From a bacterium (GTDB lineage: Bacteria; Hydrothermota; 32-111): 16,485 nt of DNA. Below the pieces are notes generated by a model. It saw only the letters and a list, made by a program, of their open reading frames with translations, was not told the origin of the DNA and searched no databases. Positions 152 through 16,485 of the stretch are shown here, piece after piece; position 1 is the stretch's first letter, and each line of letters begins with the position of its first letter. A program made the position numbers and the translations under genes. Location: positions 1 to 16,485 of the forward strand of contig JBFXGO010000047.1 in the NCBI GenBank assembly GCA_050239825.1, read 5' to 3'.

Positions 152-1909
152 GTGAAAAAAATATTCGTTTTGATTCTGATTTTGACAGCGGCTCTTTTCT
201 CAGCAGGCGAAACCGCCGACTATTCTGCTCTGATAAAGGATGTTGACGCTTTTGTGGATTCCGTAATGAAGACTCACAATGTACCTGGAGTATCAATTGC
301 CGTTGTAAAAAACAATGAAGTGATTCTGGCAAAAGGATACGGATACAGGAACCTGAAAGAAAAACTCCCTGTTACGAAAAATACTCTCTTCTGCATAGGC
401 TCATCAACCAAGGCTTTTACAGCGACAGCTCTCTCCATTGCCTCCGATGAAGGGTATCTTGATTTTGATGAAAAAGTCACAAAATACATGCCGGATTTTG
501 AATTGAATGATAAGAGTGTATCTGACAATGCTTTGGTGAAAGATTTACTGACACATAGAATCGGACTTCCCCGTCATGACTTTATGTGGTACGGCTCTTC
601 TTTCACAAGAGAGGAAATATACAAGAGACTGAAGTATCTCGAACTTTCCGCCGGTCTCAGAGAAACATTTCAATATCAGAATCACATGTTTATGACAGCG
701 GGTCTTCTTTTGGAGAGGGTGACAGGGAAAACATGGGAGGATTTCGTCAAAGAGAGAATATTTGTGCCTCTCAACATGAATGAAACAAATTTATCGACAG
801 ATGATTCGAAAAAATCCGCAGACTACGCGCTGCCATATCTTTTGGATAACAAAAAAATAACAGAGATTCCTTTCAGGGAATTTCCGGCAATGGGCCCTGC
901 GGGAACAATAAATTCAAATGCGGTTGATATGGCTAACTGGCTTATGTTCAATCTTAACAGAGGAAATGTGAACTCAAAACAGCTGATTGCCGATGCATCA
1001 TTTGCCAGAATGACGACGCCGCAGATGATTGCCTCTCCTGTCTCTGGCAGTGAGGAGAATTCTTACCCATCATACGGGATGGGCTGGTTCATTCAATATT
1101 ACAGAGGGCATTATATAGTTCACCATGGAGGAAATATCGACGGATTCTCAGCTCTTGTATCATTCTTCCCGGATGACTCATTTGGAGTTGTTGTGCTTAC
1201 AAACATGAATGCAACACCGCTGACTTCAATCATTAATTATTATATTTCCGACAGACTCATGAATCTTGAACCTGTCAACTGGAGCGAGAGGATTGCAACA
1301 TCTGAGGATAAAGCGGAGGAAGTCGTGAAGAGCGCTGTAGAACAAAGAGTGAAAAATACAAAATCCTCGCACTCATTGAATAGCTATGCGGGAACTTACG
1401 AAAATAAAGGATACGGTTTGATGAAAATTGATTATAAAAATGGAAAACTCCATCTGAAATACAATATTCTTGATATGGACTTAAATCATTATCATTACGA
1501 TGTATTCTCCGGCAAATCGAAGATGCTCGGTGATATGGAGATGAAATTCCGTTTTGAATCTGCTTCTGACGGGAGCATAGCTAAGGTATATGCGCCTCTT
1601 GAAATGAGTGTTGGAGAAATATGCTTTGAGAGAGTTGCAGAGAGCGAATTCACATCAAAAGAGTATCTGGAAAAGTTTACAGGCATTTACGCAACAAAGG
1701 ATTTCTCAATTGCAGTTGACTTAATTTCAGGCAAACTCAAAATGACGATACCGGGACAGCCGCAATACACTCTGCTTTCAAAAGAAATGAATTCGTTCAG
1801 CATAGAGGAATTGACCGGATTTGCCGTTTCATTTGAAGTTAAGGGAAACAATGTGACAGCCATGAATCTTATTCAACCGAATGGAACATTCAGAGTCGAA
1901 AAAAAATAA
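152..1909 (+). CDS. Secreted serine hydrolase, beta-lactamase class C/AmpC-like family, with probable DUF3471-like C-terminal domain(s)
   Basis: SxxK motif (IGSSTK), LLTHRIGL, YxN (FQYQN) and HGG (HHGGNIDGF). Signal peptide VKKIFVLILILTAALFSA. The start is probably GTG at 152 after SD AGGAGG, not the ORF-track start at 125. C-terminal YAGTYENKGYG is typical of DUF3471. Confidence 0.88.
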   Translation: MKKIFVLILILTAALFSAGETADYSALIKDVDAFVDSVMKTHNVPGVSIAVVKNNEVILAKGYGYRNLKEKLPVTKNTLFCIGSSTKAFTATALSIASDEGYLDFDEKVTKYMPDFELNDKSVSDNALVKDLLTHRIGLPRHDFMWYGSSFTREEIYKRLKYLELSAGLRETFQYQNHMFMTAGLLLERVTGKTWEDFVKERIFVPLNMNETNLSTDDSKKSADYALPYLLDNKKITEIPFREFPAMGPAGTINSNAVDMANWLMFNLNRGNVNSKQLIADASFARMTTPQMIASPVSGSEENSYPSYGMGWFIQYYRGHYIVHHGGNIDGFSALVSFFPDDSFGVVVLTNMNATPLTSIINYYISDRLMNLEPVNWSERIATSEDKAEEVVKSAVEQRVKNTKSSHSLNSYAGTYENKGYGLMKIDYKNGKLHLKYNILDMDLNHYHYDVFSGKSKMLGDMEMKFRFESASDGSIAKVYAPLEMSVGEICFERVAESEFTSKEYLEKFTGIYATKDFSIAVDLISGKLKMTIPGQPQYTLLSKEMNSFSIEELTGFAVSFEVKGNNVTAMNLIQPNGTFRVEKK

Positions 1910-1917
1910 ATACGCTC

Positions 1918-1945
1918 TTGACATTTTTTGAAAAATTATTAAAGT
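1918..1945 (+). promoter_or_regulatory. Putative sigma70-type promoter pointing into the intergenic hairpin
   Basis: Perfect TTGACA(1918-1923)-N16-TAAAGT(1940-1945). The predicted +1 (~1952-1953) coincides with the 5' end of the stem. Confidence 0.5.
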
Positions 1946-1952
1946 TGATAGT

Positions 1953-2017
1953 GGAAGCAGGCCTAACTTTATCGGTACTACTACTACATTAACCGATGAA
2001 TCCTGCTTCCTTTTTTT
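1953..2017 (+). ncRNA. Candidate ~65-nt small RNA and/or intrinsic terminator between convergent genes
   Basis: Outer stem GGAAGCAGG(1953-1961)/CCTGCTTCC(2002-2010). Inner stem TTTATCGGT(1968-1976)/ACCGATGAA(1992-2000) with one G-U pair. 15-nt loop ACTACTACTACATTA, followed by T7 (2011-2017). Confidence 0.45.
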
Positions 2018-3281
2018 ATTCCCCTGTGAGAATTAAAAATTGGTAATCCTTAATATACTTATTGAGAACTCCTGTGATATCGGCGGGTTTCATCTTAGAG
2101 ATTTTTTTCATGAACTTTGCGTCATGATCAAAATCGCCGTAAACCATGTAATTGTATCCGTTGTTGAAGCTTTTTGAGTCAGACCTCTCGTTTTCCATAT
2201 AGAACGAAGTCTCATAAAGGTTCCTCAAATCATCAATCTCCCTCTGAGTCAGACCCTCTCTCTTTGCCTTGTCCATCTCCTGTCTGAAAAGCGAAATGGC
2301 GCTGTCGGGGTAAGTGGTTGAAACATAAAATACTCCGTAATTGACTTTCTTGTCCGATGCTCCCATGTAAGCCGCATATGTGAGTCCGTGTTTTGTGCGC
2401 AGAGTTTCGTAGATTCTCTTCGAGAGTATGGACATCGCGATTCTTGCGGCGGCATAGTCATTATCTGTGACTGATGGAAGGTTGAATTTGCATGCGGCAT
2501 AGCTTGTCTCCAGATTCTTTTTCTTTTCCTGAATCAATGTGTCGCGCCCCAGATTCTTAAACTCTGAAGGCATTCTCTTCTGCCAGCTGTCATTGTTTTT
2601 CAAAAAAGAGAATTTATCCTTGATTTTGTTTTCAAGCTCTTTTCTTGGTATTCCGGTGACAATGCTAACAACTACCTTATTTTTCTTGGTCAGAAAATCG
2701 AGGTGGTTTCTCATTTCATCAGCGCTTATTTTTGAAACAGATTCCACATAACCGTCGGGAAGTGCGAGGTACTGATGCTGGCGGAAAAACCAATCATTCA
2801 GCCGAAGCCATATCAGTTCATCCGGATTTGTCTCTTTGGCATTGATCGCCTCTATCATCCTTTCTCTGATTATATTTACATTCTTCTCAAGGAATAGGGG
2901 ATTTTCCAGCATATCTGCGGCAACATCAAGCGCCTCTTCAAAATGCCTGCTGAATACCGTAAAACTAATAGCGGAATAATCATAATTGGTTGTTACATTG
3001 ATTCGCATCCCGAACCTATCCATCATCGAATTGATGTCTGATTCGGAATATTTTTTCGTTCCCTTCTGCACTGCTTCAAATATGAATTTTTCAATCCCGG
3101 CATTATCAAGGGTCGAATTCATTGAGCCGCCGTCAAAGAAAAATGTGATTGTTGAAATCTCTCTCTCTTTCGAATAATCGTAAATAAGATTTTTTCCGAA
3201 TGATGAATTCAGAATTTCAGCCTTTGCAGATAGAGAGATATATACAACAAATAAAAATGATATCAAAATAAGCCTTCTCAT
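2016..3281 (-). CDS. M16 (pitrilysin/insulinase) family protein, probably the non-catalytic subunit
   Basis: M16-like layout (FDGGS...AGIEKFIFEAVQKGTKKYS; RIYETLRTKHGLTY) but no HxxEH. Signal peptide. 4-bp overlap with the upstream M16 gene. Confidence 0.85.
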   Translation of the reverse strand: MRRLILISFLFVVYISLSAKAEILNSSFGKNLIYDYSKEREISTITFFFDGGSMNSTLDNAGIEKFIFEAVQKGTKKYSESDINSMMDRFGMRINVTTNYDYSAISFTVFSRHFEEALDVAADMLENPLFLEKNVNIIRERMIEAINAKETNPDELIWLRLNDWFFRQHQYLALPDGYVESVSKISADEMRNHLDFLTKKNKVVVSIVTGIPRKELENKIKDKFSFLKNNDSWQKRMPSEFKNLGRDTLIQEKKKNLETSYAACKFNLPSVTDNDYAAARIAMSILSKRIYETLRTKHGLTYAAYMGASDKKVNYGVFYVSTTYPDSAISLFRQEMDKAKREGLTQREIDDLRNLYETSFYMENERSDSKSFNNGYNYMVYGDFDHDAKFMKKISKMKPADITGVLNKYIKDYQFLILTGE

Positions 3282-4630
3282 TTTATTTCTCCTTTACTTG
3301 AGAATATTTCTTTAGCGGATTTTTCATCAGTCATTATGCCTTCGACATAGGGTTTGTTTATCAGGTACTCCTTCATAACGGATTTGATATCCTCTATGTT
3401 TACTTTCTTCAGATTTTGAAGATAATTCTGAAAATAATCTATGTCGGAAACACACCACCAAAATCCTACACCAAGGGCAAAATCAACGGATGATTCAATG
3501 TCCTGATAGAAATTCATCTCAGCTCTCTCCTTCGCCTGATTCAGTATTTCGTCGGTTAAAAAATCTGACTGATAAATTTGATTCAATTCCTCAAAAAAAA
3601 TATCCTTTACCCTCAAAGCATTCTCGGCGGGGGAAGAGGAGTAAAAAGTCACTGTTGCGCCGTCCCTTTGAGTATAGTAGCCGAGATAGTAATCGTATGC
3701 AATGCCCTCGTTGACCAGTTTTGTATATAAAGGCAGGCTTTTAAGCTTCATTATTTCGCATAAAAGGTCTATGGCGTATGTCTTTTCATTGTTCTTTCCG
3801 ACATCGGGGCCTCTAAAAGTAAGCATAAGGTCGGTCGCAGAAACATTCTGCACAGTGAATACTTTCTTGATTGATTCAAGCTCCGGGTGTTCGGGAAAAT
3901 CAAAATCAGGGTTCTCCATTCTGCTCCATTTTGAGAAGTATTTTCTGACAAGTTTCTCTGTTCTATTGAAGTCAATATCTCCCACAACTATAAGAGCCGA
4001 ATTGTTTGGTATGTAATATTTGTCTTTGATTTCAAACATCTGCTTCTGAGTGGCATTTTCAATGACGCTCTTATCGCCTATGGCATTTTTTCTATAGAAA
4101 AATTTTTCAAACATCGCCTCTTCATTCAATTGGTAGAATATGTATGAGGGTTCCGAAAAGTCCCTGTTAAATTCATTCAAAACAACATTTATCTCCTTTG
4201 CAAGCTCCAATGTGTCGAATATGGGGTCCATTATCGCATAAGCCATAAACTCTATCCCCTCTTCTTCGTTTCTTGAAGGCAGTGTGAAAAAGTATCTGAC
4301 CGCCTCATTGGATGTCATGCCGTTGTAAACTATTCCAAGCTCGCGTATTCTCTTTGCATAATCCTCTTGAGATGTCCATTTTTTGTTTCCCTTGAAGAAC
4401 ATGTGCTCATAGAGGTGAGAAAGACCGCAGTTTTCGGGTGTCTGAGTATATGCGCCGTTTTTGACGGCTATCTCAATCGTCACTATCGGTTCGCTTCCGG
4501 ATTTTATCATTATGACTTCAAGTCCGTTGTCGAGAAAGATGCTTCTGTACTCTCTGTCGAGTATGGTGCCTGCCTGCGTAAAAGCAATTGTAAGCAGAAG
4601 TGCGGAAATCAGAAACAAAAACTTCTTCAT
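3278..4630 (-). CDS. M16 family zinc metallopeptidase, catalytic subunit
   Basis: Inverted zincin motif HxxEH (GLSHLYEHMFFKG), LDNGLEV, YNGMTS, YYIPNNSALIVVGD. Signal peptide. SD AAGGAG. Confidence 0.92.
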   Translation of the reverse strand: MKKFLFLISALLLTIAFTQAGTILDREYRSIFLDNGLEVIMIKSGSEPIVTIEIAVKNGAYTQTPENCGLSHLYEHMFFKGNKKWTSQEDYAKRIRELGIVYNGMTSNEAVRYFFTLPSRNEEEGIEFMAYAIMDPIFDTLELAKEINVVLNEFNRDFSEPSYIFYQLNEEAMFEKFFYRKNAIGDKSVIENATQKQMFEIKDKYYIPNNSALIVVGDIDFNRTEKLVRKYFSKWSRMENPDFDFPEHPELESIKKVFTVQNVSATDLMLTFRGPDVGKNNEKTYAIDLLCEIMKLKSLPLYTKLVNEGIAYDYYLGYYTQRDGATVTFYSSSPAENALRVKDIFFEELNQIYQSDFLTDEILNQAKERAEMNFYQDIESSVDFALGVGFWWCVSDIDYFQNYLQNLKKVNIEDIKSVMKEYLINKPYVEGIMTDEKSAKEIFSSKGEIK

Positions 4631-5574
4631 ATCTTCTCCTTTATATTTTTTTTCTCGGTTAAAAAGAAAATCCCTCCCAAAATGCTGAATATAACCGTTA
4701 TTATGTAAAATGAGAGAGAAAGAGCCACGGTCTCTTCTTTAAGGGCTGTGGTGAAAAAAGTCATATACGCCCACTCTCTCAACCCGAGTCCGTTGATTGT
4801 CACAGGTATCATGCTTATAAGGGAGATGAAGGGAATATATATGACAAGTTCAATAAAATCAATTGAGAGTCCCTGAGACAAAACTATGAAGTAGTTCGTG
4901 AAAACAAAAACAACCTGTATCATAAATGAGAGAAGGAGATTTATCACAAGCTGTTTTTTGTGATTTTTTATGAGCCTGAGGGATGTGAAGAGAGAGTTGA
5001 TTCTCTCTCCGAGCTTTAAAAATCTAATTTTGGAAAACAATCCGTAAAAGAATTTAAAGACAATGTCATTTGAAATCGCAGTAAAGAAAATTGCGGAAAA
5101 AAGAACTCCTGCCGCCGAAATCGGAAGGAAATACTTTATCTGAACTCTGCTGAAGAATATTATAGGAACAATAATTATGTAGAAGAGTATTCCAAGAAGT
5201 CCTATCCACCTCTCTATCAGAATTGAAGATACCACATCTGAAAGGGGTTTCTCATCGTTGGCGACATATATTCCTCTGATTACATCAGTGCCTACAGTTG
5301 AGGGCAGAAAGTTGCCGAAGAAGAGGCCGATCATGTATATTTTGAAAGAGCGGAAAATGGAGACGCTGAAACCGTAAAGCTTGAGAACCATCTGCCATCT
5401 CAATGCAAGGATGTAGGTGAATGCAAAATTGGTGAGAAATGCTAAAAGAAGAAATGAGAATTTGGAATTTGCCATTACTTTCAATGTTCCCTGAAGGTCT
5501 ATTTTTGAAAATATTGCAAACATAATTAAGACGGTTATTATGATTCTCGCGAGGGTGTTTATAAATTGTTTCAT
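4627..5574 (-). CDS. UPF0104 / lysylphosphatidylglycerol synthase TM-region (flippase-like) membrane protein
   Basis: Multi-TM protein with ALRWQ, GLFFGNFLPSTVGTDVIR, IERWIG and IPVTINGLGLRE motifs. Start taken as ATG at 5574 (the ORF track uses TTG at 5577). Confidence 0.85.
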   Translation of the reverse strand: MKQFINTLARIIITVLIMFAIFSKIDLQGTLKVMANSKFSFLLLAFLTNFAFTYILALRWQMVLKLYGFSVSIFRSFKIYMIGLFFGNFLPSTVGTDVIRGIYVANDEKPLSDVVSSILIERWIGLLGILFYIIIVPIIFFSRVQIKYFLPISAAGVLFSAIFFTAISNDIVFKFFYGLFSKIRFLKLGERINSLFTSLRLIKNHKKQLVINLLLSFMIQVVFVFTNYFIVLSQGLSIDFIELVIYIPFISLISMIPVTINGLGLREWAYMTFFTTALKEETVALSLSFYIITVIFSILGGIFFLTEKKNIKEKI

Positions 5575-5580
5575 CAATTA

Positions 5581-5608
5581 AATATATGTTACTTCTTTGA
5601 TTTGTCAA
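5581..5608 (-). promoter_or_regulatory. Putative promoter of the flippase-M16-M16 operon (probably leaderless transcript)
   Basis: On the minus strand TTGACA(5608-5603)-N16-TATATT(5586-5581)-N6-ATG(5574), with no SD upstream of the ATG. Confidence 0.55.
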
Positions 5609-5712
5609 GAGTCGTCTCACACAATAAAAAAAGTTATAATAAATAAAAGTGTAAATGTAAAAGGCAAAAAAGCAGGGGGGATTGTTGTAAAGACAAAATC
5701 TTACTCAACCGT

Positions 5713-5756
5713 GTCACCCTAAACGCCTCTATGGTTATGACTATCGTGAAGGGTCT
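5713..5756. repeat. Module B hairpin GTCACCCT...GTGAAGGGTCT (copies at 5713-5756, 6060-6103, 16100-16143)
   Basis: ACCCT/AGGGT outer stem. In the 6060 and 16100 copies the inner stems are CAC/GTG and CTATGGT-TACG-ACTATAG. The 5713 copy is degenerate. Confidence 0.8.
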
Positions 5757-5802
5757 ATCAGGTTTTTGATGATTGAAGATTTTTTATGGGCTGCACGTGG
5801 GT

Positions 5803-5906
5803 GTAGCGTCGGCTCACACACTCCGCTTCGCCGCTTTATCAAGATGGGTTAGCGTAGCAAGGGGTTGCCCACTTGATGGGCGTCTGCGCGGAGCGTCCTC
5901 GCCGAC
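5803..5906. repeat. Module C core, copy 1 (104 bp nested hairpin)
   Basis: GTAGCGTCGGC...GCGTCCTCGCCGAC. Nested stems GTCGGC/GCCGAC, CTCCGC/GCGGAG, CGCC/GGCG, ATCAAG/CTTGAT, TGG/CCA. Confidence 0.9.
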
Positions 5907-5944
5907 TTGTAGCTTTCACTTTCAATAAGTTATTTAATTGATTG

Positions 5945-6030
5945 AATCTTCACAAAGCATTGGCTGGGGTGTAATGTGCGTGAACGCACATGATAGAGTT
6001 ATCGGGTTGCACCAGAACTTTGTGAAGATT
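5945..6030. repeat. Module D multibranch hairpin, copy 1 (copy 2 at 6300-6385; left-truncated copy at 16386-16458)
   Basis: Perfect 13-bp stem AATCTTCACAAAG/CTTTGTGAAGATT enclosing GGTGTAA/TTGCACC, ATGTGCG-N4-CGCACAT and GATA-N4-TATC. Confidence 0.88.
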
Positions 6031-6157
6031 ACTGTAAAGACAAAATATTAATCAGCAGAGTCACCCTGAACACGTCTATGGTTACGACTATAGTGAAGGG
6101 TCTATCAGTTTATTGGTTATTGATTATTGAAAATCGATTGAGGGGCTGCTGGCGGGC

Positions 6158-6261
6158 GTAGCGTCGGCTCACACACTCCGCTTCGCCGCTTTATCAAGAT
6201 GGGATAGCGAAGCAAGGGGTCAACCACTTGATGGGCGTCTGCGCGGAGCGTCCTCGCCGAC
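6158..6261. repeat. Module C core, copy 2
   Basis: 104 bp, near-identical to 5803-5906. Differences are confined to the apical region. Confidence 0.9.
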
Positions 6262-6462
6262 TTGCAGCTTTCGCTCTCAATAAGTTAATTAATTGATTGA
6301 ATCTTCACAAAGCATTGGCTTGGGTGTAATGTGCGCGAACGCACATGATAGAGGTATCGGGTTGCACCAGAACTTTGTGAAGATTAACAAAAAGACAAAA
6401 TCTTATTCATCTCCCCGTATTAAGCTCATGGCACACGGCTGTTTTTGTGGCTGTACGCGGGT

Positions 6463-6566
6463 GTAGCGTCGGCTCACACACTCCGCTTCGCCGCTTAATC
6501 AAGATGGGATAGCCAAGCGAGGGGTCAACCACTTGATGGGCGTCTGCGCGGAGCGTCCTCGCCGAC
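6463..6566. repeat. Module C core, copy 3
   Basis: 104 bp, near-identical to the other cores. Confidence 0.9.
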
Positions 6567-6751
6567 TTGTAGCTTACGAGTATCAATAAGAATTGATTTG
6601 CTTGTCCTCGGAAAAACATTGAATAGCAGTGCGGAGATGCACTGGAATTTTTCCTTGGAATTGTAAAGGCAAGTTATTTACTCAACTCTCCGTATTAAGC
6701 TCATGGCACACGGCTCACGGCTCAAGGCTGATTTGGTGGCTGCTGAATAGT

Positions 6752-6770
6752 GTAGCGTCGGCTCACACAC
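6752..6770. repeat. Truncated module C (5' 19 bp only)
   Basis: GTAGCGTCGGCTCACACAC, followed after 5 bp by the delimiter motif. Confidence 0.8.
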
Positions 6771-6945
6771 CAGTCTGTAAAGACAAAATCTTACTCAACT
6801 CACCGTGTTGCATTTCAATTCTTATTTAACGCCTTTTTATTTTTCAATTTTTGCACTCTTTACCTTTTAACCGTTCAACCTTGTAACTTTTTTTACTTTC
6901 TTCACCTAAGTACCTTTTACCTTGCGCTTTTTTTTATGTTACTTC

Positions 6946-6973
6946 TTTACTTATATATAATTTTTGTTATAAT
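6946..6973 (+). promoter_or_regulatory. Putative valS promoter
   Basis: TTTACT(6946-6951)-N16-TATAAT(6968-6973) with extended -10 TG. SD AAGGAG at 6986-6991. Confidence 0.6.
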
Positions 6974-6996
6974 GTTTTTTTGATTAAGGAGTATTG

Positions 6997-9549
6997 ATGG
7001 ACAAGATTTATGATTTTCTAAGCAATGAGGCGAAGTGGAACAAAAAATGGTCTGATGAAAAGACCTATCACACTAACCCCGATTCAAGGGAGTGTTATTC
7101 AATAGTAATACCGCCGCCGAATGTTACGGACATTCTGCACTTAGGACATGCTTTTAACAATTCCATACAGGATATTCTCATTCGTTATCACAGAAACCGC
7201 GGTTATAATGCCGAATGGCTTCCGGGAACAGACCATGCCGGAATTGCAACTCAGGTTGTGGTTGAGAAGCTTTTAAAGAAAGAAGGAAAGAAAAAAGAGG
7301 ATTTTGGAAGAGATAAATTTGAACAGGAAGTTTGGAAATGGGCAAAGGACAGGCGTTTTACAATACTGAATCAACTTAAGGGAATAGGAGCTTCTTGCGA
7401 TTGGGAGAGAACGAAATTCACTCTTGACGAGGATATGTCCAAAACAGTTGCTGTGGTGTTTAAAAAACTATACGAGAAAAAATATATCTATAAAGGTAAT
7501 TATATAGTCAACTGGTGTCCCAGATGCCACACTGCTCTTTCCGACGAAGAGGTTGACTACCATGAAAAGAATGGAAAACTCTACTATATAAGGTATCCGC
7601 TCTCTGATAACAGCGGACATATAACCGTTGCTACAACAAGACCCGAAACAATGCTCGGCGACTCTGCAGTAGCTGTGAATCCGCATGATGAAGGCAAAAA
7701 ACACCTTATCGGGAAAAAAGTGACATTGCCTCTGATGAAGAGGGAAATAGAGATTATTGCCGATGAATTCGTAGATAAAGAGTTCGGCACCGGATTTGTC
7801 AAGGTGACTCCTGCGCATGACCCAAATGATTTTACAATGGGCATGAAGCACAATCTCGACAAGAGAGTCATTATGGATACAAGGGGATTCATAAATGACA
7901 ATGGTGGAAAATACAAAGGTCTTGAAAGGTATAAAGCGAGAGAGGAGATATTGAAAGACCTTGAAGAGCTTAACCTGATTGAAAAAATTGAAGATTATAA
8001 AAATTCTGTAGGAGAATGCTATAGATGCAAAACAACAATTGAACCATACCTATCCGAGCAATGGTTCGTAGATATGACGGCTCTTGCCAAGCCGGCTCTT
8101 GAAGCATCTTTAAACAACACATTGAAATTTTATCCTGCAAGATGGCAGGGAGTCTATAACCACTGGCTCATGAATATCAAGCCATGGTGCATTTCCCGTC
8201 AGCTCTGGTGGGGCCATAGGATTCCCGTTTATTACTGTGACAGCTGTGAAAGCGAACATGTCTCTGTAGAAAAACTGACAGAGTGCCCTAAGTGCGGAGG
8301 AACAGTCAGGCAGGATGAGAATGTGCTTGATACATGGTTTTCTTCTTGGCTCTGGCCATTCGCCACATTCGGATGGTCTGACAACAGCTCGGATTACAGG
8401 TATTTCTATCCCACAAAAGTTATTGTCTCAGCCTCTGAGATTCTCTTTTTCTGGATCGCGCGGATGATTATGGCAGGAATAGAATTCACAGGAGAACTTC
8501 CATTCAGGGACATTTTCATCCACGGCACAGTGAGGGACTCAAAAGGTGTCAAAATGTCAAAATCTCTCGGCAACGGCATAGACCCGCTTGTCATAACAAA
8601 TAAATTTGGAGCTGATGCTCTCCGCTTTACCATTGTTTTTCTTTCCGGACAAGGAAAGGACCCCAACATAAGCGAGAAGTCATTTGAACTGGGAAGAAAC
8701 TTTGCAAATAAGATATGGAATGCCGCAAGATTCATCCTTTCCGACTCGGAAGAAAAGGCGCCTCACAACGTCTCTCCTGAAGATGAATTTGACGGATGGA
8801 TTTTGTCAAGACTATCAGAGGCGGAGAAAAACTTCAACTCGGCTATTGGACAGTACCGCCTCTCCGACGGAGCGCAGATTATTTATGAGTTTTTTTGGAA
8901 GGATTTCTGCGACTGGTATCTTGAGATAATGAAAGCGAGGGGTAAAAAGAAAGCAACTGCGCTCTTTGTGTTAAAGAGAGTTATGATGCTCTTAAATCCT
9001 TATATGCCTTACATTACCGAAGAGCTGCATCAAATACTCGGCGGAAAAAGCTTGATCCATGAGGAGACCTACAGTGAATTTGAATTCAGCGATTCACTTG
9101 CTCTTGAAAGAGTTGAGAATCTGAAATCCCTCATCGTTGCCCTCCGAAATCTGATGCAGGAGACAAATGCAAAAAGAGTATTTGTTCTTTGTGATGAGGA
9201 TTTCTTCAATACTTCTGAAAAATCAATGGACCTGCTTTTAAAACTATCAAAGCTTGAGGCAATTGACATAGTCAAAGAGAAGGCGAAGAGGGCAATCGCA
9301 GTGCCTTTCGCGAAGGGTATTGTATTTGTCAGTGCCGAGCAGATAGGAAATCTTGAGGAAAGAATAATTAAGTATGAGAAGGAACTGTCACAGATAAATT
9401 CTGAAATTGAAAAGACCGAGAGAAACCTTAAAAACGAAGGTTTTCTCAGCAAAGCGGATGAATCTGTTATTCAGATGATGAAGGAAAAGGTCGTTGAATT
9501 CTCTTCAAAGAAGGAAAGAATAGAAGAAATCCTTAAATCATTGAGGTGA
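6997..9549 (+). CDS. valS: Valine--tRNA ligase
   Basis: PPPNVT..LHLGH (HIGH), WLPGTDHAGIATQ, VATTRPETMLGD editing domain, WCISRQLWWGHRIP, DTWFSS, KMSKS and a C-terminal coiled coil. ATG at 6997 is 5 nt after SD AAGGAG. Confidence 0.98.
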   Translation: MDKIYDFLSNEAKWNKKWSDEKTYHTNPDSRECYSIVIPPPNVTDILHLGHAFNNSIQDILIRYHRNRGYNAEWLPGTDHAGIATQVVVEKLLKKEGKKKEDFGRDKFEQEVWKWAKDRRFTILNQLKGIGASCDWERTKFTLDEDMSKTVAVVFKKLYEKKYIYKGNYIVNWCPRCHTALSDEEVDYHEKNGKLYYIRYPLSDNSGHITVATTRPETMLGDSAVAVNPHDEGKKHLIGKKVTLPLMKREIEIIADEFVDKEFGTGFVKVTPAHDPNDFTMGMKHNLDKRVIMDTRGFINDNGGKYKGLERYKAREEILKDLEELNLIEKIEDYKNSVGECYRCKTTIEPYLSEQWFVDMTALAKPALEASLNNTLKFYPARWQGVYNHWLMNIKPWCISRQLWWGHRIPVYYCDSCESEHVSVEKLTECPKCGGTVRQDENVLDTWFSSWLWPFATFGWSDNSSDYRYFYPTKVIVSASEILFFWIARMIMAGIEFTGELPFRDIFIHGTVRDSKGVKMSKSLGNGIDPLVITNKFGADALRFTIVFLSGQGKDPNISEKSFELGRNFANKIWNAARFILSDSEEKAPHNVSPEDEFDGWILSRLSEAEKNFNSAIGQYRLSDGAQIIYEFFWKDFCDWYLEIMKARGKKKATALFVLKRVMMLLNPYMPYITEELHQILGGKSLIHEETYSEFEFSDSLALERVENLKSLIVALRNLMQETNAKRVFVLCDEDFFNTSEKSMDLLLKLSKLEAIDIVKEKAKRAIAVPFAKGIVFVSAEQIGNLEERIIKYEKELSQINSEIEKTERNLKNEGFLSKADESVIQMMKEKVVEFSSKKERIEEILKSLR

Positions 9550-10601
9550 TGATGAGCAAGAGCGTGACAAAGGGAATCCGAATATTCGTTCTGATAACTG
9601 TTTTAACCAGTATTGTCATGCTTTTTTTCACTGTCTCAGAAGAGACATGGCGCTCATTGGAAAAAATAAAGCCGATATATTTTTTAATAGCATTGGTTCT
9701 TCTTCTCGCTTACTACTATCTTGACGGACTAAGAATCAAGTTGCTTGCAGATGCGCTGGGATATAAAATATCCGTTATGACTGGAATTGATGTGGTGGTG
9801 GGAGGAATATTTCTTGCGGCAGTGACTCCATTCCAGTCAGGAGGCTACCCATTTCAAGTCTATTGCCTCAACAAGAGGGGCATACCGTACGGAGAGGGAA
9901 CCCTGATTCTTTTCATGCGCGGAGTTCTTGCAATTTTTTTTCATATTGCCGCACTTCCGTTCATATTCGTCACATACTCCTCTCTTCTTGAAAACAGCAT
10001 AGTAAAATGGCTCATAAGGTACATAATGGTATTGTATCCCGTGATGCTTTTAATTGCCATTATAGCCATAGCATTTCCCGGGAAGGTTGTGTCATTCATG
10101 ATGGCAATTGACAGAAAGTTCAACAAAAATGCAGGCAAGAACCAAAGCAAACTTGCCAAGGCTGCGAACTGGATAGATACTGAGATAAAATTATTTAAGA
10201 ACGGATTGGTATTTTATTTTACAAAGCGCAGGGCGTCTCTCTTCATAAATCTTGCTCTTACATTTATCGGTTATATACTGTTTTTCTCTCTTGCCGCAGT
10301 GATTTTGTATGCTTTGGGAGCCGGAATGAAAAATCCCGTGGCAATAGCAAGTCTGCAGTTTCTCCATAATTTCCTTGTATATTTCACTCCGACTCCGGGA
10401 GCGAGTGGAATCGCAGAGGCATTGTTCGCAATACTCTTCAAGGACATATGTCCGAAGGAGATTCTCGGACTCTATGCGATAATCTGGCGATTCTTCACTT
10501 TCACCATCGGAGCATGTATCGGAGGCTTTTTAACCCTGAAGATTGTAAATCAGTCAGGAACCACTTTGGATGAACTTATGAAAGATGAGAAGGGAAAGTG
10601 A
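9546..10601 (+). CDS. UPF0104 / lysylphosphatidylglycerol synthase TM-region (YbhN-like flippase) membrane protein
   Basis: Multi-TM protein with AVTPFQSGGYP, PTPGASGIAE and IWRFFTF motifs. Overlaps the valS stop. Confidence 0.85.
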   Translation: MMMSKSVTKGIRIFVLITVLTSIVMLFFTVSEETWRSLEKIKPIYFLIALVLLLAYYYLDGLRIKLLADALGYKISVMTGIDVVVGGIFLAAVTPFQSGGYPFQVYCLNKRGIPYGEGTLILFMRGVLAIFFHIAALPFIFVTYSSLLENSIVKWLIRYIMVLYPVMLLIAIIAIAFPGKVVSFMMAIDRKFNKNAGKNQSKLAKAANWIDTEIKLFKNGLVFYFTKRRASLFINLALTFIGYILFFSLAAVILYALGAGMKNPVAIASLQFLHNFLVYFTPTPGASGIAEALFAILFKDICPKEILGLYAIIWRFFTFTIGACIGGFLTLKIVNQSGTTLDELMKDEKGK

Positions 10602-11592
10602 TTTGAAGAATAGCATAAGAAGGGGGATTTTTCTCTTTGTTGTTTTCACCGCCGCAGCATATTTTTTAATATTCATTTTTTACCTGAAAGATCTGCCCCA
10701 AAACATTAGTATTGATTTTAGGCTGACGCACATTTGCGGAATAATGCTTCTTTTTTCAGTATCGGTTGTTTTCAATATACTGAGGGTCTTCTTCCTTGGA
10801 AAAATCTTTTCCAAAACATTCACATTTTATGATTCATCTCTCTTCACTCTCGGCGGAGTTCTCCTTGCCCTCATAACTCCCTTTCAGGCGGGAGGAATGC
10901 CCTTTCAGCTTTATATAATGTCCAAACGATCGATATCCCCGGGCGAAGGCTCTTCAATCCTTATCAGCAGAGGGCTTCAGTCGGTTGTTGTATTTATTGT
11001 GACAATACCCTTTACCTTGACATTCTTTTCCCATCTGCTCACAGGTAGCATGGTGGCGAATCTTATAAAATATTTCTTGATGTTATACTCGGTTCTATTT
11101 GTTGTAACAGCTACAGTCCTCTCATTTACGGAAAGAATAAAAAGAATCCTCACGGAAAAGAAGATGAATGTCAGATTGAGGAATGCTCTCTTTAAAGTGC
11201 TTGATGAAGTTGTCAATTTTAAAAAAGCAATTTATGCAATGTTTACAAAAGGCATTAAAGAAAGCATTTTTTCGCTTATCTGCACATTTATTTCTCTTTA
11301 CGCAGGATTCGCTCTGACATACTTCATAGTGCTTATGGCGAAGGGGAGCACCGACTTTTTCCTTTCATTTAACATTCAATTTATTCTCACATACCTTTCG
11401 GCATTTGTGCCGACTCCCGGCTCAAGCGGAGTTGCCGAAGGCGGGATTGCTCTTCTTTACTCTCAGATAGTTCCCAAGCAACAGATACTCTTGTTTATAT
11501 TTTTGCTGAGGCTTGTGACAACTTACATACCGGCCCTCTTGGGGCTTTTTCTCATGTTCGGCAAAAAGAGCATTCTTCAAGAGATGAAATAA
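10585..11592 (+). CDS. UPF0104 / flippase-like membrane protein, tandem paralog
   Basis: ITPFQAGGMP, PTPGSSGVAE and LRLVTTY motifs match the preceding gene. The start may be TTG at 10603. Confidence 0.82.
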   Translation: MRRESDLKNSIRRGIFLFVVFTAAAYFLIFIFYLKDLPQNISIDFRLTHICGIMLLFSVSVVFNILRVFFLGKIFSKTFTFYDSSLFTLGGVLLALITPFQAGGMPFQLYIMSKRSISPGEGSSILISRGLQSVVVFIVTIPFTLTFFSHLLTGSMVANLIKYFLMLYSVLFVVTATVLSFTERIKRILTEKKMNVRLRNALFKVLDEVVNFKKAIYAMFTKGIKESIFSLICTFISLYAGFALTYFIVLMAKGSTDFFLSFNIQFILTYLSAFVPTPGSSGVAEGGIALLYSQIVPKQQILLFIFLLRLVTTYIPALLGLFLMFGKKSILQEMK

Positions 11593-12501: not shown

Positions 12502-14025
12502 ATGAAAAAGAATGTATTGCTTTTCATCATAATTTTGCAGGCGATTATTTTAACCGCACAGAGCGGGGATGCATTCATATTCGGCGAGAGAATTCTCTCT
12601 CTGATGCAGAAATCTGTTCCGGAGAGTGAGAGGGACATAGTGAGAAAGAGTGTCGCCCTTCTTTATGCGCAGACCGATTATGAGGAGGAGGGAATCGCAT
12701 CTCTGATGACAATAAGAAACGAGAGCGAATATATTCCCGCAGTCATGACTTTTACAAACATAATGGCGGGTAAGTTTAATTTTAAAACAGCGAAAAAATC
12801 GGTTTCTCTTCTTAAGGGAGAATACAAACTAGAGGCAATGCTGGTAATCGCCGATGAAATGATAAACTCCGGAATCACTAATGAATGTGGGAAATTCTTG
12901 GAGGGCTGCGAATCAGCAATAGATAAGGATTTTGAACCGTATAAGACATCAAAGTTTCTGTCGGAACTCAGCACTCTCTACTATAGACTCAACAATACTC
13001 CAAAAGCTCTAGAGCTTATAAGCAGGGCGCTCTGGACTGCGCAATCCATAAAGGATGGAGATAAGAAGGCATTTGCCCTTAAGGATGTCTCACTCGCTTA
13101 TATTTCCATGAACAACAGACTGATAACCGGCATTGTGGAGAATCAGATAAATCAGACGAAGAATCAAAGAACTCTTCTTGAAATAGCAAAAGATTATCTT
13201 GAAGCAGGGGAGGTCGGAGGCACAAAAAAATTCCTGAAGACCGCGAAAGCAAGAACCGAAAAAGAAAATGATCTGAAGATGAAATCAGGACAGTTTTATG
13301 AAGCTGCTGTTCTCTATAAAAAAATAAAGAGTGAGAAGGATGCGGCCGAGTGCGCTAAAATGTCACTCAGCACAGCAAAGGTTATCCTGTCGCGGAATGA
13401 CAGGATAAATGCAATGATACGGGCGAATGACATCCTGAAAGAGGACAGCGTCTATTCGACTGCTCTGCAGGAGATACTTCTGGTGAAGGATTATAAGACG
13501 AGGGTTGATATGATAATAGATATATCTTCGGGATATATGAGGATGAATGCCAGAGAGAAGGGATTTTTCCTTTTGAAGATGATACTGGTGGATGTTAAGA
13601 AAAACAAAAAAATACTTCAGACAGAGAAAGTGTTGGAATCAATATCGGATATCTATATAGATAACGGCTCCAGCAGAGAGTGCGATGAATTCATTGACAT
13701 TTTAAAGAGGGATTTTTCAGAGTATCCCCTGATAATTTCCAAAATGTACCATGCAAACAACAGCTACAAATCAGCGATAAAATATGCGGAAAGGATAAAA
13801 GATTCAAAAAAACGCTCTCTTCAAAAAATAAAGATAACGGAGATGGTTTTTTCTGCATCTGACAAACAATTGTCTCAGGAAGTTCTGTCGAAGATGCTTT
13901 ACGAAATTTCTCTTTCAGAGGATGCATTATTCAAATGCATCCTTCTGGCAGATGTTTCAATCCTATGCATCAAATATCAAATATCCCTCGACAGAGAGTC
14001 ACTATCTCTGCTTGAAAAAATCTAA
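12502..14025 (+). CDS. Exported hypothetical protein, alpha-helical / TPR-like repeats
   Basis: 507-aa ORF with signal peptide (MKKNVLLFIIILQAIILTA) and TPR-like segments such as LSELSTLYYRLNNTPKALELISRAL and LLEIAKDYLEAGE. Family not recognised. Confidence 0.7.
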   Translation: MKKNVLLFIIILQAIILTAQSGDAFIFGERILSLMQKSVPESERDIVRKSVALLYAQTDYEEEGIASLMTIRNESEYIPAVMTFTNIMAGKFNFKTAKKSVSLLKGEYKLEAMLVIADEMINSGITNECGKFLEGCESAIDKDFEPYKTSKFLSELSTLYYRLNNTPKALELISRALWTAQSIKDGDKKAFALKDVSLAYISMNNRLITGIVENQINQTKNQRTLLEIAKDYLEAGEVGGTKKFLKTAKARTEKENDLKMKSGQFYEAAVLYKKIKSEKDAAECAKMSLSTAKVILSRNDRINAMIRANDILKEDSVYSTALQEILLVKDYKTRVDMIIDISSGYMRMNAREKGFFLLKMILVDVKKNKKILQTEKVLESISDIYIDNGSSRECDEFIDILKRDFSEYPLIISKMYHANNSYKSAIKYAERIKDSKKRSLQKIKITEMVFSASDKQLSQEVLSKMLYEISLSEDALFKCILLADVSILCIKYQISLDRESLSLLEKI

Positions 14026-15415: not shown

Positions 15416-16165
15416 ATGAAGAACAAAATCATCAATGACTCCTCGGTCCATTATGCAAGGAGGATGAAGGTATCCCTGTTGATTTCCTTAATAATGTTAA
15501 TATGCCTCTTCTCCCTTGCTCCGTCAATCAATACAAATCCATACACAATGAAAAATGAAAACAAAACAATTATTTTACAGGCGGTTATTGAACCTCTGAA
15601 GAACCTCTCCGACATGAAGGAGATTCCAAAACAGAGTCTGCCGAAGAGAATCACGGAAACGGAAAATGAGAATGAGGTAAGCGACATGGACATCAGAACG
15701 GATTTTGAAGATTCTGTAATTACAAATACAGATGAAGACGACAGAATATATACTATATATGAAACACCGCCGAAATTGCTTACTGGAATTGAAGTGAAGT
15801 ATCCTGAAGCGGCGAAAAAGATGGGAATTGAAGGAAAGGTTTATCTTAGAATTGTTGTTGAAAAAGACGGAAAAGTATCCTCTGTCGAGGTTATCAAATC
15901 AGACAACATAATACTTAATGATGCGGCAGTAGAGGCAGTCAAGAATGCTATCTTTTCTCCTGCAATGGCGAGGGACCTGCCTGTAAGGTGTGTGGTAACT
16001 CTGCCTATAATGTTCAAGTTGACAAAGTATAAAAGTGAAAATGTGAAAAGGCAAAAAAGCAGGGGAGATTGTTGTAAAGACAAAATCTTATTCAGCCATG
16101 TCACCCTGAACACGTCTATGGTTACGACTATAGTGAAGGGTCTATCAGTTTATTGTTATTGTTAA
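15416..16165 (+). CDS. Energy transducer TonB family protein (N-terminal TM anchor plus TonB C-terminal domain) with a repeat-derived C-terminal tail
   Basis: YPEAAKKMGIEGKVYLRIVVEKDGKV...LNDAAVEAVK...FSPA...VTLPIMFKL is a canonical TonB_C domain. The last 45 codons run through the repeat array. Confidence 0.88.
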   Translation: MKNKIINDSSVHYARRMKVSLLISLIMLICLFSLAPSINTNPYTMKNENKTIILQAVIEPLKNLSDMKEIPKQSLPKRITETENENEVSDMDIRTDFEDSVITNTDEDDRIYTIYETPPKLLTGIEVKYPEAAKKMGIEGKVYLRIVVEKDGKVSSVEVIKSDNIILNDAAVEAVKNAIFSPAMARDLPVRCVVTLPIMFKLTKYKSENVKRQKSRGDCCKDKILFSHVTLNTSMVTTIVKGLSVYCYC

Positions 16166-16485
16166 TTGATTGTTGATTATTTAAGATTGATTGGGGACTG
16201 CCGAATAGTGTAGCGTCGGCTCACACACTCCGCTTCGCCGCTTTATCAAGATGGGATAGCGTAGCAAGGGGTCGCCCACTTGATGGGCGTCTTCGCGGAG
16301 CGTCCTCGCCGACTTGCAGCTTTCGTGTATCAATAAGTTAATTATTTGTCTGTTGCAGTGGGGACACACCGAAGGAATGTCCCCACATTGGCTGGGGTGT
16401 AATGTGCGCGAACGCACATGATAGAGGTATCGGGTTGCACCAGAACTTTGTGAAGATTACTGAAAAGACAAAATCTTATTCATCT
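16029..16485. repeat. Modular structured repeat array, locus 2 (runs off the window end)
   Basis: Same leader as at 5643 (ATAAAAGTG..AAAAGGCAAAAAAGCAGGGG.GATTGT). Then delimiter 16073, module B 16100-16143, core C 16210-16313, extra hairpin 16358-16386, partial D 16386-16458 and delimiter 16461. Confidence 0.9.
16358..16386. repeat. REP-like palindrome GTGGGGACA-CACCGAAGGAA-TGTCCCCAC
   Basis: Perfect 9-bp inverted repeat starting GTGG and ending CCAC, with an internal CC-GAA-GG mini-hairpin. Present only in locus 2. Confidence 0.65.

Follow-up and report, generated by a model that had tools for sequence, protein, structure and literature searches.

Arrays of a genus-specific mosaic hairpin repeat in a Hydrothermota genome and their candidate link to a Y1 transposase

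The stretch analyzed here, hereafter the window, comprises the 16,485 nucleotides of contig JBFXGO010000047.1 of the assembly GCA_050239825.1, a Hydrothermota genome of 2.1 Mb in 67 contigs and 99% completeness (G000, in which the window is contig C6), whose nearest named relatives by valyl-tRNA synthetase (ValRS) are WOR-3 metagenome-assembled genomes at 67% identity. Two loci of the window, locus 1 (5643-6810) and locus 2 (16029-16485), hold head-to-tail arrays of short modules that obey the grammar A-(B or E)-C-(D or D'), in which a delimiter (A) is followed by a first slot (B or E), a long hairpin core (C), and a second slot (D or D'). The explanation we favor, to which we assign roughly an even chance, is that both arrays are built from a non-coding mosaic repeat confined to one genus, resembling bacterial interspersed mosaic elements (BIMEs), NIMEs, and BOX elements, which was seeded by a Y1 transposase and has grown by recombination or slippage. 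Two aspects of this are new, namely the physical link of the arrays to a gene of the TIRYT type, that is, a Y1 transposase gene bounded by terminal inverted repeats (TIRs), and the covariation of paired positions across the subfamilies of C.

The placement of modules and the grammar proposed in an initial annotation of the window, which had been made from the letters alone, were reproduced by a repeat search and by profile searches built from the window's own modules, from which the module coordinates given below derive. The repeat search returned 155-nt copies at 5763, 6118, 6423, and 16170, with identities of 81-88%, and a 272-nt pair at 5783/6138 with 91% identity. By two rounds of BLAST starting from the window arrays, the family was found to occupy 71 regions totaling 43,685 bp, or about 2% of the genome, including 47 arrays of at least 200 bp, the longest of which reach 2.3 kb, with units of about 300-355 nt. 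The profiles matched C 131 times throughout the genome (108 near full length), B 79, A 78, E 70, D 66, and D' 65 times, as well as a 33-nt palindrome (R) 48 times. Module successions over the whole genome followed the order seen in the window: A led to B (33) or E (26), both B (40) and E (41) led to C, and C was followed by D (58), D' (42), or R (4), after which D passed to A (42) or directly to E (8), and D' likewise to A (17) or E (19). This answers the copy count that the initial annotation had suggested, and, since each module is present in 48-131 copies in a constant order, chance can be excluded. Delimiter A, when searched at up to five mismatches, is present in 97 copies, only two of which lie outside arrays, both in small fragments; A is thus a component of the unit rather than a site that existed beforehand.

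The modules within an array share one strand, the sole exceptions being three inverted B copies at array edges. Most arrays start within tens of bases of an upstream stop codon, and those flanked by two same-strand open reading frames (ORFs) are oriented in sense in 17 cases and in antisense in 2. A variant delimiter, A', follows D' in many arrays of the genome, and a module Z closes 15 of the 44 intact 3' ends in the form of A' + Z + a 7-nt-period tract.

Beyond the five modules of the window, a further one, beginning with CTAGTCCAATATCACTGGTCACGAGTCAAG, precedes a diverged subfamily of C (stem 2 = GCTCAT/ATGAGC) and closes some arrays (G000 C54:11157, C54:13968, C51:1-916, and array ends on C28), so that the mosaic has more module types than the window displays. 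The palindrome R is near-invariant (GTGGGGACACACCGWAGGAATGTCCCCA) and, in 42 of its 48 copies, lies within arrays, every one of them co-oriented, where it occupies at least three positions inside units: it may stand at the tip of C, in the 5' arm of D, or ahead of D'. Three copies immediately follow tRNA genes. Among its loci are window positions 16353-16385 and G000 C7:59633-59665, C7:59796-59828, and C27:45378-45410.

The distribution of the family is narrow. By BLAST, the repeat unit was detected in 3 of 61 related genomes, and a covariance model of C detected it in 3 of 150, all belonging to one genus. A pattern scan additionally retrieved five metagenome contigs of relatives (flanks 70-82% identical) carrying single units, C-D or B-C-D', instead of arrays. 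The empty-site comparison recommended by the initial annotation gave a clear result at one of the two window loci: the site after the TonB-like gene at locus 2 carries no array in either congener, G001 or G002. The site upstream of valS at locus 1 is not cleanly orthologous, since no array is present in G002 but the alignment begins only at the promoter and a 5' fragment of C is retained; in G001, remnants of E lie at a contig end 150-190 bp upstream of valS. Two further loci are shared with differing module content (G000 C36 vs G002 C41, and G000 C29 vs G001 C94). Taken together, the missing arrays at the TonB-like site and the differing content at these two loci indicate, as far as genome comparison goes, that arrays are gained, lost, and remodeled within the genus. 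A putative orthologous site bearing a TIR only (G002 C65 vs G000 C48) was dropped, being unalignable beyond the flanking gene.

The locus 2 insertion also bears on the TonB-like ORF itself (window 15416-16165), which encodes 249 aa here versus 209-211 aa in the two congeners. The repeat starts exactly at the position of the congeners' stop codon, and the frame consequently runs on into it, with about 45 codons being repeat-encoded.

On the plus strand, C folds into an imperfect hairpin that spans about 125 nt and whose five stem segments contain 33 pairs in all. The core is present as initially described, though at a profile length of 136 nt instead of 104, and the accompanying statement that hairpins are conserved while linkers diverge holds for C, whose paired columns are 95% identical and unpaired columns 86%. 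In 101 distinct full-length copies from this genome, the paired cells comprised 2860 Watson-Crick, 270 G-U, 26 A-C, 150 other, and 27 gapped combinations, and sliding the 3' partner by 1-3 columns lowered the Watson-Crick count to 469-1248. With diverged subfamilies and copies from the two congeners added (69 distinct copies from three genomes), 94.0% of cells pair, and the stem-preserving covariation that had been named as a check is present: 21 of the 33 pairs are changed on both sides, versus 5.7 in shuffled alignments (reached in 0 of 500) and 3-10 with slid partners, and covariation extends to 5 of 6 pairs in stem 2 and to 6 of 6 in stem 3. Whole stems are even exchanged between copies, with GTCGGC/GCCGAC replaced by GCTCAT/ATGAGC or GCCGGC/GCCGGC, and CTCCGC/GCGGAG by TCAGCC/GGCTGA, a behavior unlike that of coding sequence. 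The internal loop CTCACACA / CGTCCTC stays constant even where the stems are replaced, and compensated pairs are also found in D and B. That the fold is conserved and one loop fixed suggests that a protein recognizes the hairpin, whether the folded strand is RNA or single-stranded DNA.

Were that strand RNA, the arrays could be, in line with the second reading of the initial annotation, structured RNAs transcribed with or just after the upstream gene, in which C binds a protein or acts in cis (3'-end protection, termination, or a processed small RNA) and A could be a processing site. The compensated pairing and the invariant loop accord with this alternative, as do two plus-strand G-U pairs that are fixed in 51 of 51 C copies and would be A-C mismatches on the other strand, the sense orientation of 17 of the 19 arrays between same-strand neighbors, the start of most arrays within tens of bases of a stop codon, and the terminator-like stem followed by a T run in D'. 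Nevertheless, a single-stranded DNA hairpin recognized by a protein would yield the same covariation, and the minus strand folds at least as well as the plus strand. Once three fixed G-U pairs are excluded from the 101-copy set, G-U (about 30) and A-C (26) variants are nearly equal in number, so that these counts cannot separate RNA from DNA. At locus 1, the best promoter-like sites of the two neighboring genes are not within the array and face away from it. Rfam, where a match would have removed the novelty of the family, gave none at the gathering score over the whole window, and the two matches at E<=10 over 5550-7000 were chance-level snoRNA matches. Moreover, the confinement to one genus and the missing array at the orthologous congener site are unlike a conserved RNA gene, and 131 copies of C in arrays of variable length suit a selfish repeat better. 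We consider the RNA alternative unlikely on this balance. A search of the window for tRNA and tmRNA found none, and a hammerhead ribozyme was discarded as a candidate, as its core CTGATGA occurs in some C copies and is not conserved among them.

No mobilizing enzyme is encoded in the window, as the initial annotation had stated, and its proposal to look for a Y1/HUH gene next to the modules was borne out in part. Four Y1_Tnp genes of 259-301 aa with HUH and Tyr motifs are present in the genome, two of them with a C-terminal helix-turn-helix. None is flanked by modules A-E; each is bounded by TIRs that also occur elsewhere in the genome (22, 35, 11, and 12 copies by type), inverted pairs 127-300 bp apart included, and the TIR of one gene, here the C5 type, is joined to a minority of arrays. 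Although arrays make up only 2% of the genome, they contain 10 of the 22 C5-type copies, and 2 more are no further than 30 bp away; two of the other types have 0-1 copies inside arrays, and 3 of 12 (T18) and 1 of 11 (T56) copies lie near them. Each of the 12 array-linked C5-type TIRs has the same orientation as its array and is succeeded by the start of C, either directly or after a common 45-nt linker; in five cases, the TIR is preceded by a C that breaks off near position 50. When a looser core pattern is used, the TIR forms the exact outer edge of 9 of the 43 intact array 5' ends, with five more copies internal and none in inverted orientation. For 6 of the 9 TIR-starting edges, the adjoining 100 nt upstream occur nowhere else in the genome, and the joint sequences reveal unique DNA abutting the outer end of the TIR at different loci; the sequence before the TIR often ends in TTCT or TTTT. 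Two arrays have both a TIR and Z; one of them, on contig C44, consists of just one unit of about 390 bp made up of TIR, linker, C, R, D', A', and Z.

The distribution of the C5 protein parallels that of the repeat in that orthologues (75% and 61% identity) were confined to the two congeners, where they occupy the corresponding position beside a tRNA gene and carry the same TIR, the best matches elsewhere being at the level of paralogues (<=51%). The gene, which encodes 259 aa, lies at G000 C5:4330-5109, with orthologues on G002 C129 and G001 C97. A tRNA gene immediately precedes it in both G000 and G002. The Y1 element of G001 is apparently flanked at its two ends by the 5' and 3' parts of the tRNA gene, where the record contains masked letters. 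As for other mobilizing enzymes, TnpB (PF07282) and IS110 (PF01548) had no match in the genome, and none of five Phage_integrase matches, three of them above the cut-off, adjoins an array by coordinates.

In the explanation favored here, the C5-type transposase would act in trans on one DNA strand and move a piece that starts at a TIR and carries C-type hairpins, thereby seeding new loci. As the grammar suggests, such a piece would then lengthen and exchange its slot modules when its C cores or A delimiters, which are nearly identical from copy to copy, recombine unequally or slip during replication. Any consequence for the cell is probably secondary, given that most arrays start right after a stop codon; an example would be transcripts whose 3' ends contain hairpins or terminator-like stems.

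A number of observations weigh against this explanation. The TIR is missing from 34 of the 43 intact 5' edges, neither window array starts with one, and array ends are heterogeneous, the first module being C in 26, A in 11, and B in 8. The joints between TIR and C comprise three sequence patterns, and possibly no more than three ancient events, later duplicated together with parts of arrays, gave rise to them. No match spanning such a joint was found in G001 or G002, two assemblies that break at these repeats and in which many matches lie at contig ends. The arrays are bounded by no second, inverted TIR, and inspection of 47 boundary pairs disclosed no target duplication. The Y1 family is found in 37 of 61 relatives, which are mostly array-free, those with many Y1 genes included. 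Arrays lie on the locally G-rich strand in 40 of 47 cases (85%), a bias equal to that of long ORFs (82.5%), so that a replication-strand mechanism and co-transcription are inseparable by this measure. As to the fold, 51 MAFFT-aligned C copies contained 4 pairs changed on both sides versus 1.4 in shuffles (2 of 500 reach this number), a weak signal that we ascribe to the close similarity of copies within this genome; the 69-copy alignment was fitted to the model, which favors the structure; and both strands fold beyond shuffles (z of -2.84 for the plus and -4.83 for the minus strand), so that folding energy cannot choose between them. Considering that the TIR is absent from most edges, that its joints fall into three patterns, that no joint-spanning match was found in the congeners, and that a second TIR is lacking, we regard the transposase link as a supported lead and not as a demonstration.

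Several of these irregularities are what would be expected if no dedicated enzyme were involved and a satellite-like repeat had spread by homologous recombination, gene conversion, and slippage, with the TIRs and R as separate small elements that insert preferentially into these gene-free stretches or persist better in them. The heterogeneous ends, the lack of target duplications, and the many edges without a TIR fit such a process, and so do the T18 and T56 TIRs near arrays and the placement of R at three or more positions in units and after tRNA genes, as an independent inserter would behave; module swapping is likewise expected from unequal crossing-over in the shared C core. Recombination alone would nevertheless hardly establish arrays at new sites, an example being the one behind the TonB-like gene, which is missing from G001 and G002, and at six loci unique DNA adjoins the repeat at the outer end of the TIR. 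Furthermore, 14 of 14 TIRs in arrays are co-oriented and 12 of 12 C5-type TIRs lead into the start of C, where random nesting would have given both orientations and both TIRs of a pair. An origin by recombination only thus appears rather unlikely to us.

A narrower form of the transposase-seeded explanation, which we put forward as a tentative possibility, is that the arrays are the first visible cargo of a TIRYT-type Y1 transposase, namely a one-ended single-strand element with a single TIR as its start, fixed-loop hairpins, a 7-nt-tract end (E, Z), and head-to-tail multiplication. If true, this would constitute a mode of array building distinct from REP/RAYT systems and from ordinary miniature inverted-repeat transposable elements (MITEs). 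In a bolder variant, the fixed-loop C hairpin may act as an RNA bound by the same protein or by a host protein.

Within the window, locus 1 reads A-B-C-D, A-B-C-D, A-E-C-D', A'-E-C(truncated)-A, and locus 2 reads A-B-C-[R + D]-A, with R in place of the 5' arm of D. The features are the following, all on the plus strand and placed by profile match unless another basis is given.

5643-5685, plus strand: left flank L, purine-rich and GTAAAAG-like, ending in GCAGGGGGGATTGT; common to locus 2, by blastn-short match.
5686-5709, plus strand: delimiter A, unit 1.
5705-5766, plus strand: slot-1 module B (hairpin), unit 1.
5788-5923, plus strand: core C, unit 1, a long imperfect hairpin with five stem segments and the fixed internal loop CTCACACA / CGTCCTC.
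5931-6034, plus strand: slot-2 module D, unit 1, a hairpin containing an inner hairpin.
6032-6056, plus strand: delimiter A, unit 2.
6052-6114, plus strand: module B, unit 2.
6143-6278, plus strand: core C, unit 2.
6286-6386, plus strand: module D, unit 2.
6391-6410, plus strand: degenerate copy of delimiter A, unit 3 (profile E 0.006; 5 mismatches).
6408-6440, plus strand: slot-1 module E, unit 3, a tract of 7-nt period (GCTCANG).
6448-6582, plus strand: core C, unit 3.
6592-6663, plus strand: slot-2 module D', a hairpin; 6627-6644 form a terminator-like stem that precedes a T run.
6661-6686 (about), plus strand: variant delimiter A' (TTGTAAAGGCAAGTTATTTACTCAAC), read from the sequence.
6683-6717, plus strand: module E, unit 4.
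6737-6770, plus strand: truncated C (first 35 positions), fused directly to A.
6775-6799, plus strand: terminal delimiter A.
6800-6821, plus strand: diverged copy of the 3'-terminal module Z (TCACCGTGTTGCATTTCAATTC), by comparison by eye with the Z consensus.
6859-6895, plus strand: CTTTTAC-like tract, partly the inverted complement of L, by inverted-repeat match.
16029-16072, plus strand: left flank L of locus 2, by blastn-short match, starting where the stop codon of the congeners' TonB-like gene stands.
16073-16096, plus strand: delimiter A, locus 2.
16092-16154, plus strand: module B, locus 2.
16195-16329, plus strand: core C, locus 2.
16340-16461, plus strand: module D of locus 2, its 5' arm substituted by R.
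16353-16385, plus strand: R, the 33-nt palindrome (GTGGGGACACACCGAAGGAATGTCCCCAC) in place of the 5' arm of D, by motif search.
16460-16483, plus strand: last delimiter A of locus 2; the array continues off the contig end.

The left boundary is the same at both loci, as had been claimed: flank L is present in two copies in the genome, both in the window (5643-5685 and 16029-16072; blastn-short), and left edges resembling it (GGGGAGATT) were seen at two further arrays. The junction between a 5' part of C and A, formed in unit 4, recurs at other arrays. On the right side of locus 1, L is partly complementary to 6859-6895 (an inverted match of 37 nt at 70%).

Arrays are often bracketed by such inverted tracts of 7-nt period, which in the window are GTAAAAG-like on the left and CTTTTAC-like on the right; on metagenome contig L156, GCTGGTA and TACCAGC tracts flank its single unit. 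Modules E (GCTCANG) and Z (AACYCGT) are 7-nt tracts themselves. One idea is that the Y1 protein might bind such tracts through its helix-turn-helix.

Locus 1 lies between a minus-strand gene with a membrane domain of the lysyl-phosphatidylglycerol-synthase type (4627-5577) and valS on the plus strand (6994-9549), and only two ORFs of at least 60 aa overlap it. Three paralogous LPG_synthase_TM genes surround valS, at 4627-5577 (minus), 9546-10601 (plus), and 10585-11592 (plus). Locus 2 sits after the TonB-like gene and is truncated by the contig end. A 507-aa ORF elsewhere in the window (12502-14025, plus) has no Pfam family at E 0.001.

The order of units in locus 1 rests on the assembly, since no independent contig spans the array; the Logan contigs of the best DNA run end at 5688, with only short pieces inside. 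This leaves room for an assembly artefact, in which the repeat has been collapsed or mis-chained. We hold this to be very improbable, since the grammar recurs across 47 arrays, many of which are embedded in long contigs, and extends to two other genomes and five metagenome contigs, and since unit-specific pieces free of differences stand at single-copy depth (about 21, versus 23.8 in the flank). The summed depth of short contigs over 5635-6773 ranges from 238 to 6538 against 23.8 in the flank (10 to 270 times), which fits a very high copy number, perhaps beyond that of the assembly, although the sum cannot be read as a copy number, given the contribution of other strains and organisms.

This genome offers a testable pairing of one conserved single-copy Y1 gene, its end-repeat, and an abundant hairpin family that starts at this end-repeat in about ten places. 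If the link is true, it would explain how the 2-Mb genome of an uncultured lineage gained 2% of structured repeats, and it would provide a defined biochemical substrate. If it is false, there is still a clear lineage-specific mosaic repeat with real covariation, which annotators and those searching for RNA motifs should mask or handle carefully. No description of the family was found in the literature on WOR-3 repetitive extragenic repeats, on Stahlbacteria (by title and abstract), or on TIRYT, and one unit compared by BLAST with plasmid and phage collections had no match.

Among known systems, the TIRtron or TIRYT is defined as a Y1 transposase gene flanked by TIRs (Di Nocera et al. 2013, PMC3733652) and has been placed in subclass 2.1 (Quentin et al. 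2018, PMC6006769). In the available passages of these two papers, TIR families consist of short repeats, single, dimeric, or grouped, and some TIRYT genes are noted to be flanked by repeats dispersed in the genome, with nothing more noted (PMC3733652, PMC6006769). The four Y1 genes of this genome resemble these systems, as far as those passages describe them, in their HUH and Tyr motifs and in being flanked by TIRs that also occur solo and paired, and one TIR family is attached to the arrays. Modules A-E differ in that they are not TIRs and flank no Y1 gene, the only link being the TIR that abuts the starts of C, and published TIR families are not tied to tandem arrays of long hairpins in the passages available. 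The published TIR motif, GGGGWSAS (PMC3733652, in the part available), is matched at 6 of 8 positions by the core of the C5 TIR (AGGGACGG). As a separate observation, GGGGACAC within R matches it at 8 of 8, and R flanks none of the four Y1 genes.

Other mobile or repetitive classes agree less well or were rejected. A MITE was ruled out because no anti-oriented TIR lies in or near any array and no flank is duplicated at the 47 boundary pairs, and a CRISPR array because the sequences separating the A copies are not unique but recur 48-131 times (no search for cas genes was made). In comparison with PATE-like elements of the IS200/IS605 type, unlike ends are seen in some arrays (a TIR at the 5' end in 9 of 43, Z at the 3' end in 15 of 44, and both in 2), with no TnpB and no fixed target shown.

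The BIME-like reading of the initial annotation stands for the behavior of the family, which is non-coding, intergenic, very multicopy, and limited to one genus at variable sites, and fails for the features that define BIMEs and the repetitive extragenic palindromes (REPs) composing them. Like BIMEs, the family is a mosaic of hairpin motifs and fixed linkers, often located just after genes, with a high copy number in one lineage and a Y1/HUH gene in the genome as a candidate mover. Unlike BIMEs, its modules are arranged head to tail on one strand instead of being alternately inverted. The core hairpin has about 125 nt, versus 20-40 nt for a REP, and carries no fixed tag: its TAGCG is invariant, but the preceding base can be G, A, or T, and the 3' GTAG varies as well. 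R is REP-sized at 33 nt, yet without a GTAG/CGTC tag. REPtrons differ as well, since the Y1 genes here are flanked by TIRs and not by hairpin modules.

NIMEs are interchangeable units of 50-350 nt that lie between neisserial genes and are delimited by short dRS3 repeats. The present arrays share with them an intergenic location and interchangeable units split by a short conserved delimiter; they differ in phylum and in sequence, in that A is a direct and not an inverted repeat, and in that the units are long conserved hairpins. The BOX elements of Streptococcus pneumoniae, of the form boxA-boxB(n)-boxC, are modular, non-coding, and hairpin-forming, with more than 100 copies per ~2 Mb. In all of these traits, and in the variable number of internal modules, the family described here resembles BOX and ERIC elements; it has no likeness to them in sequence and is set apart by its larger units (about 300-355 nt), its cyclic two-slot grammar, and arrays that extend to 2.3 kb.

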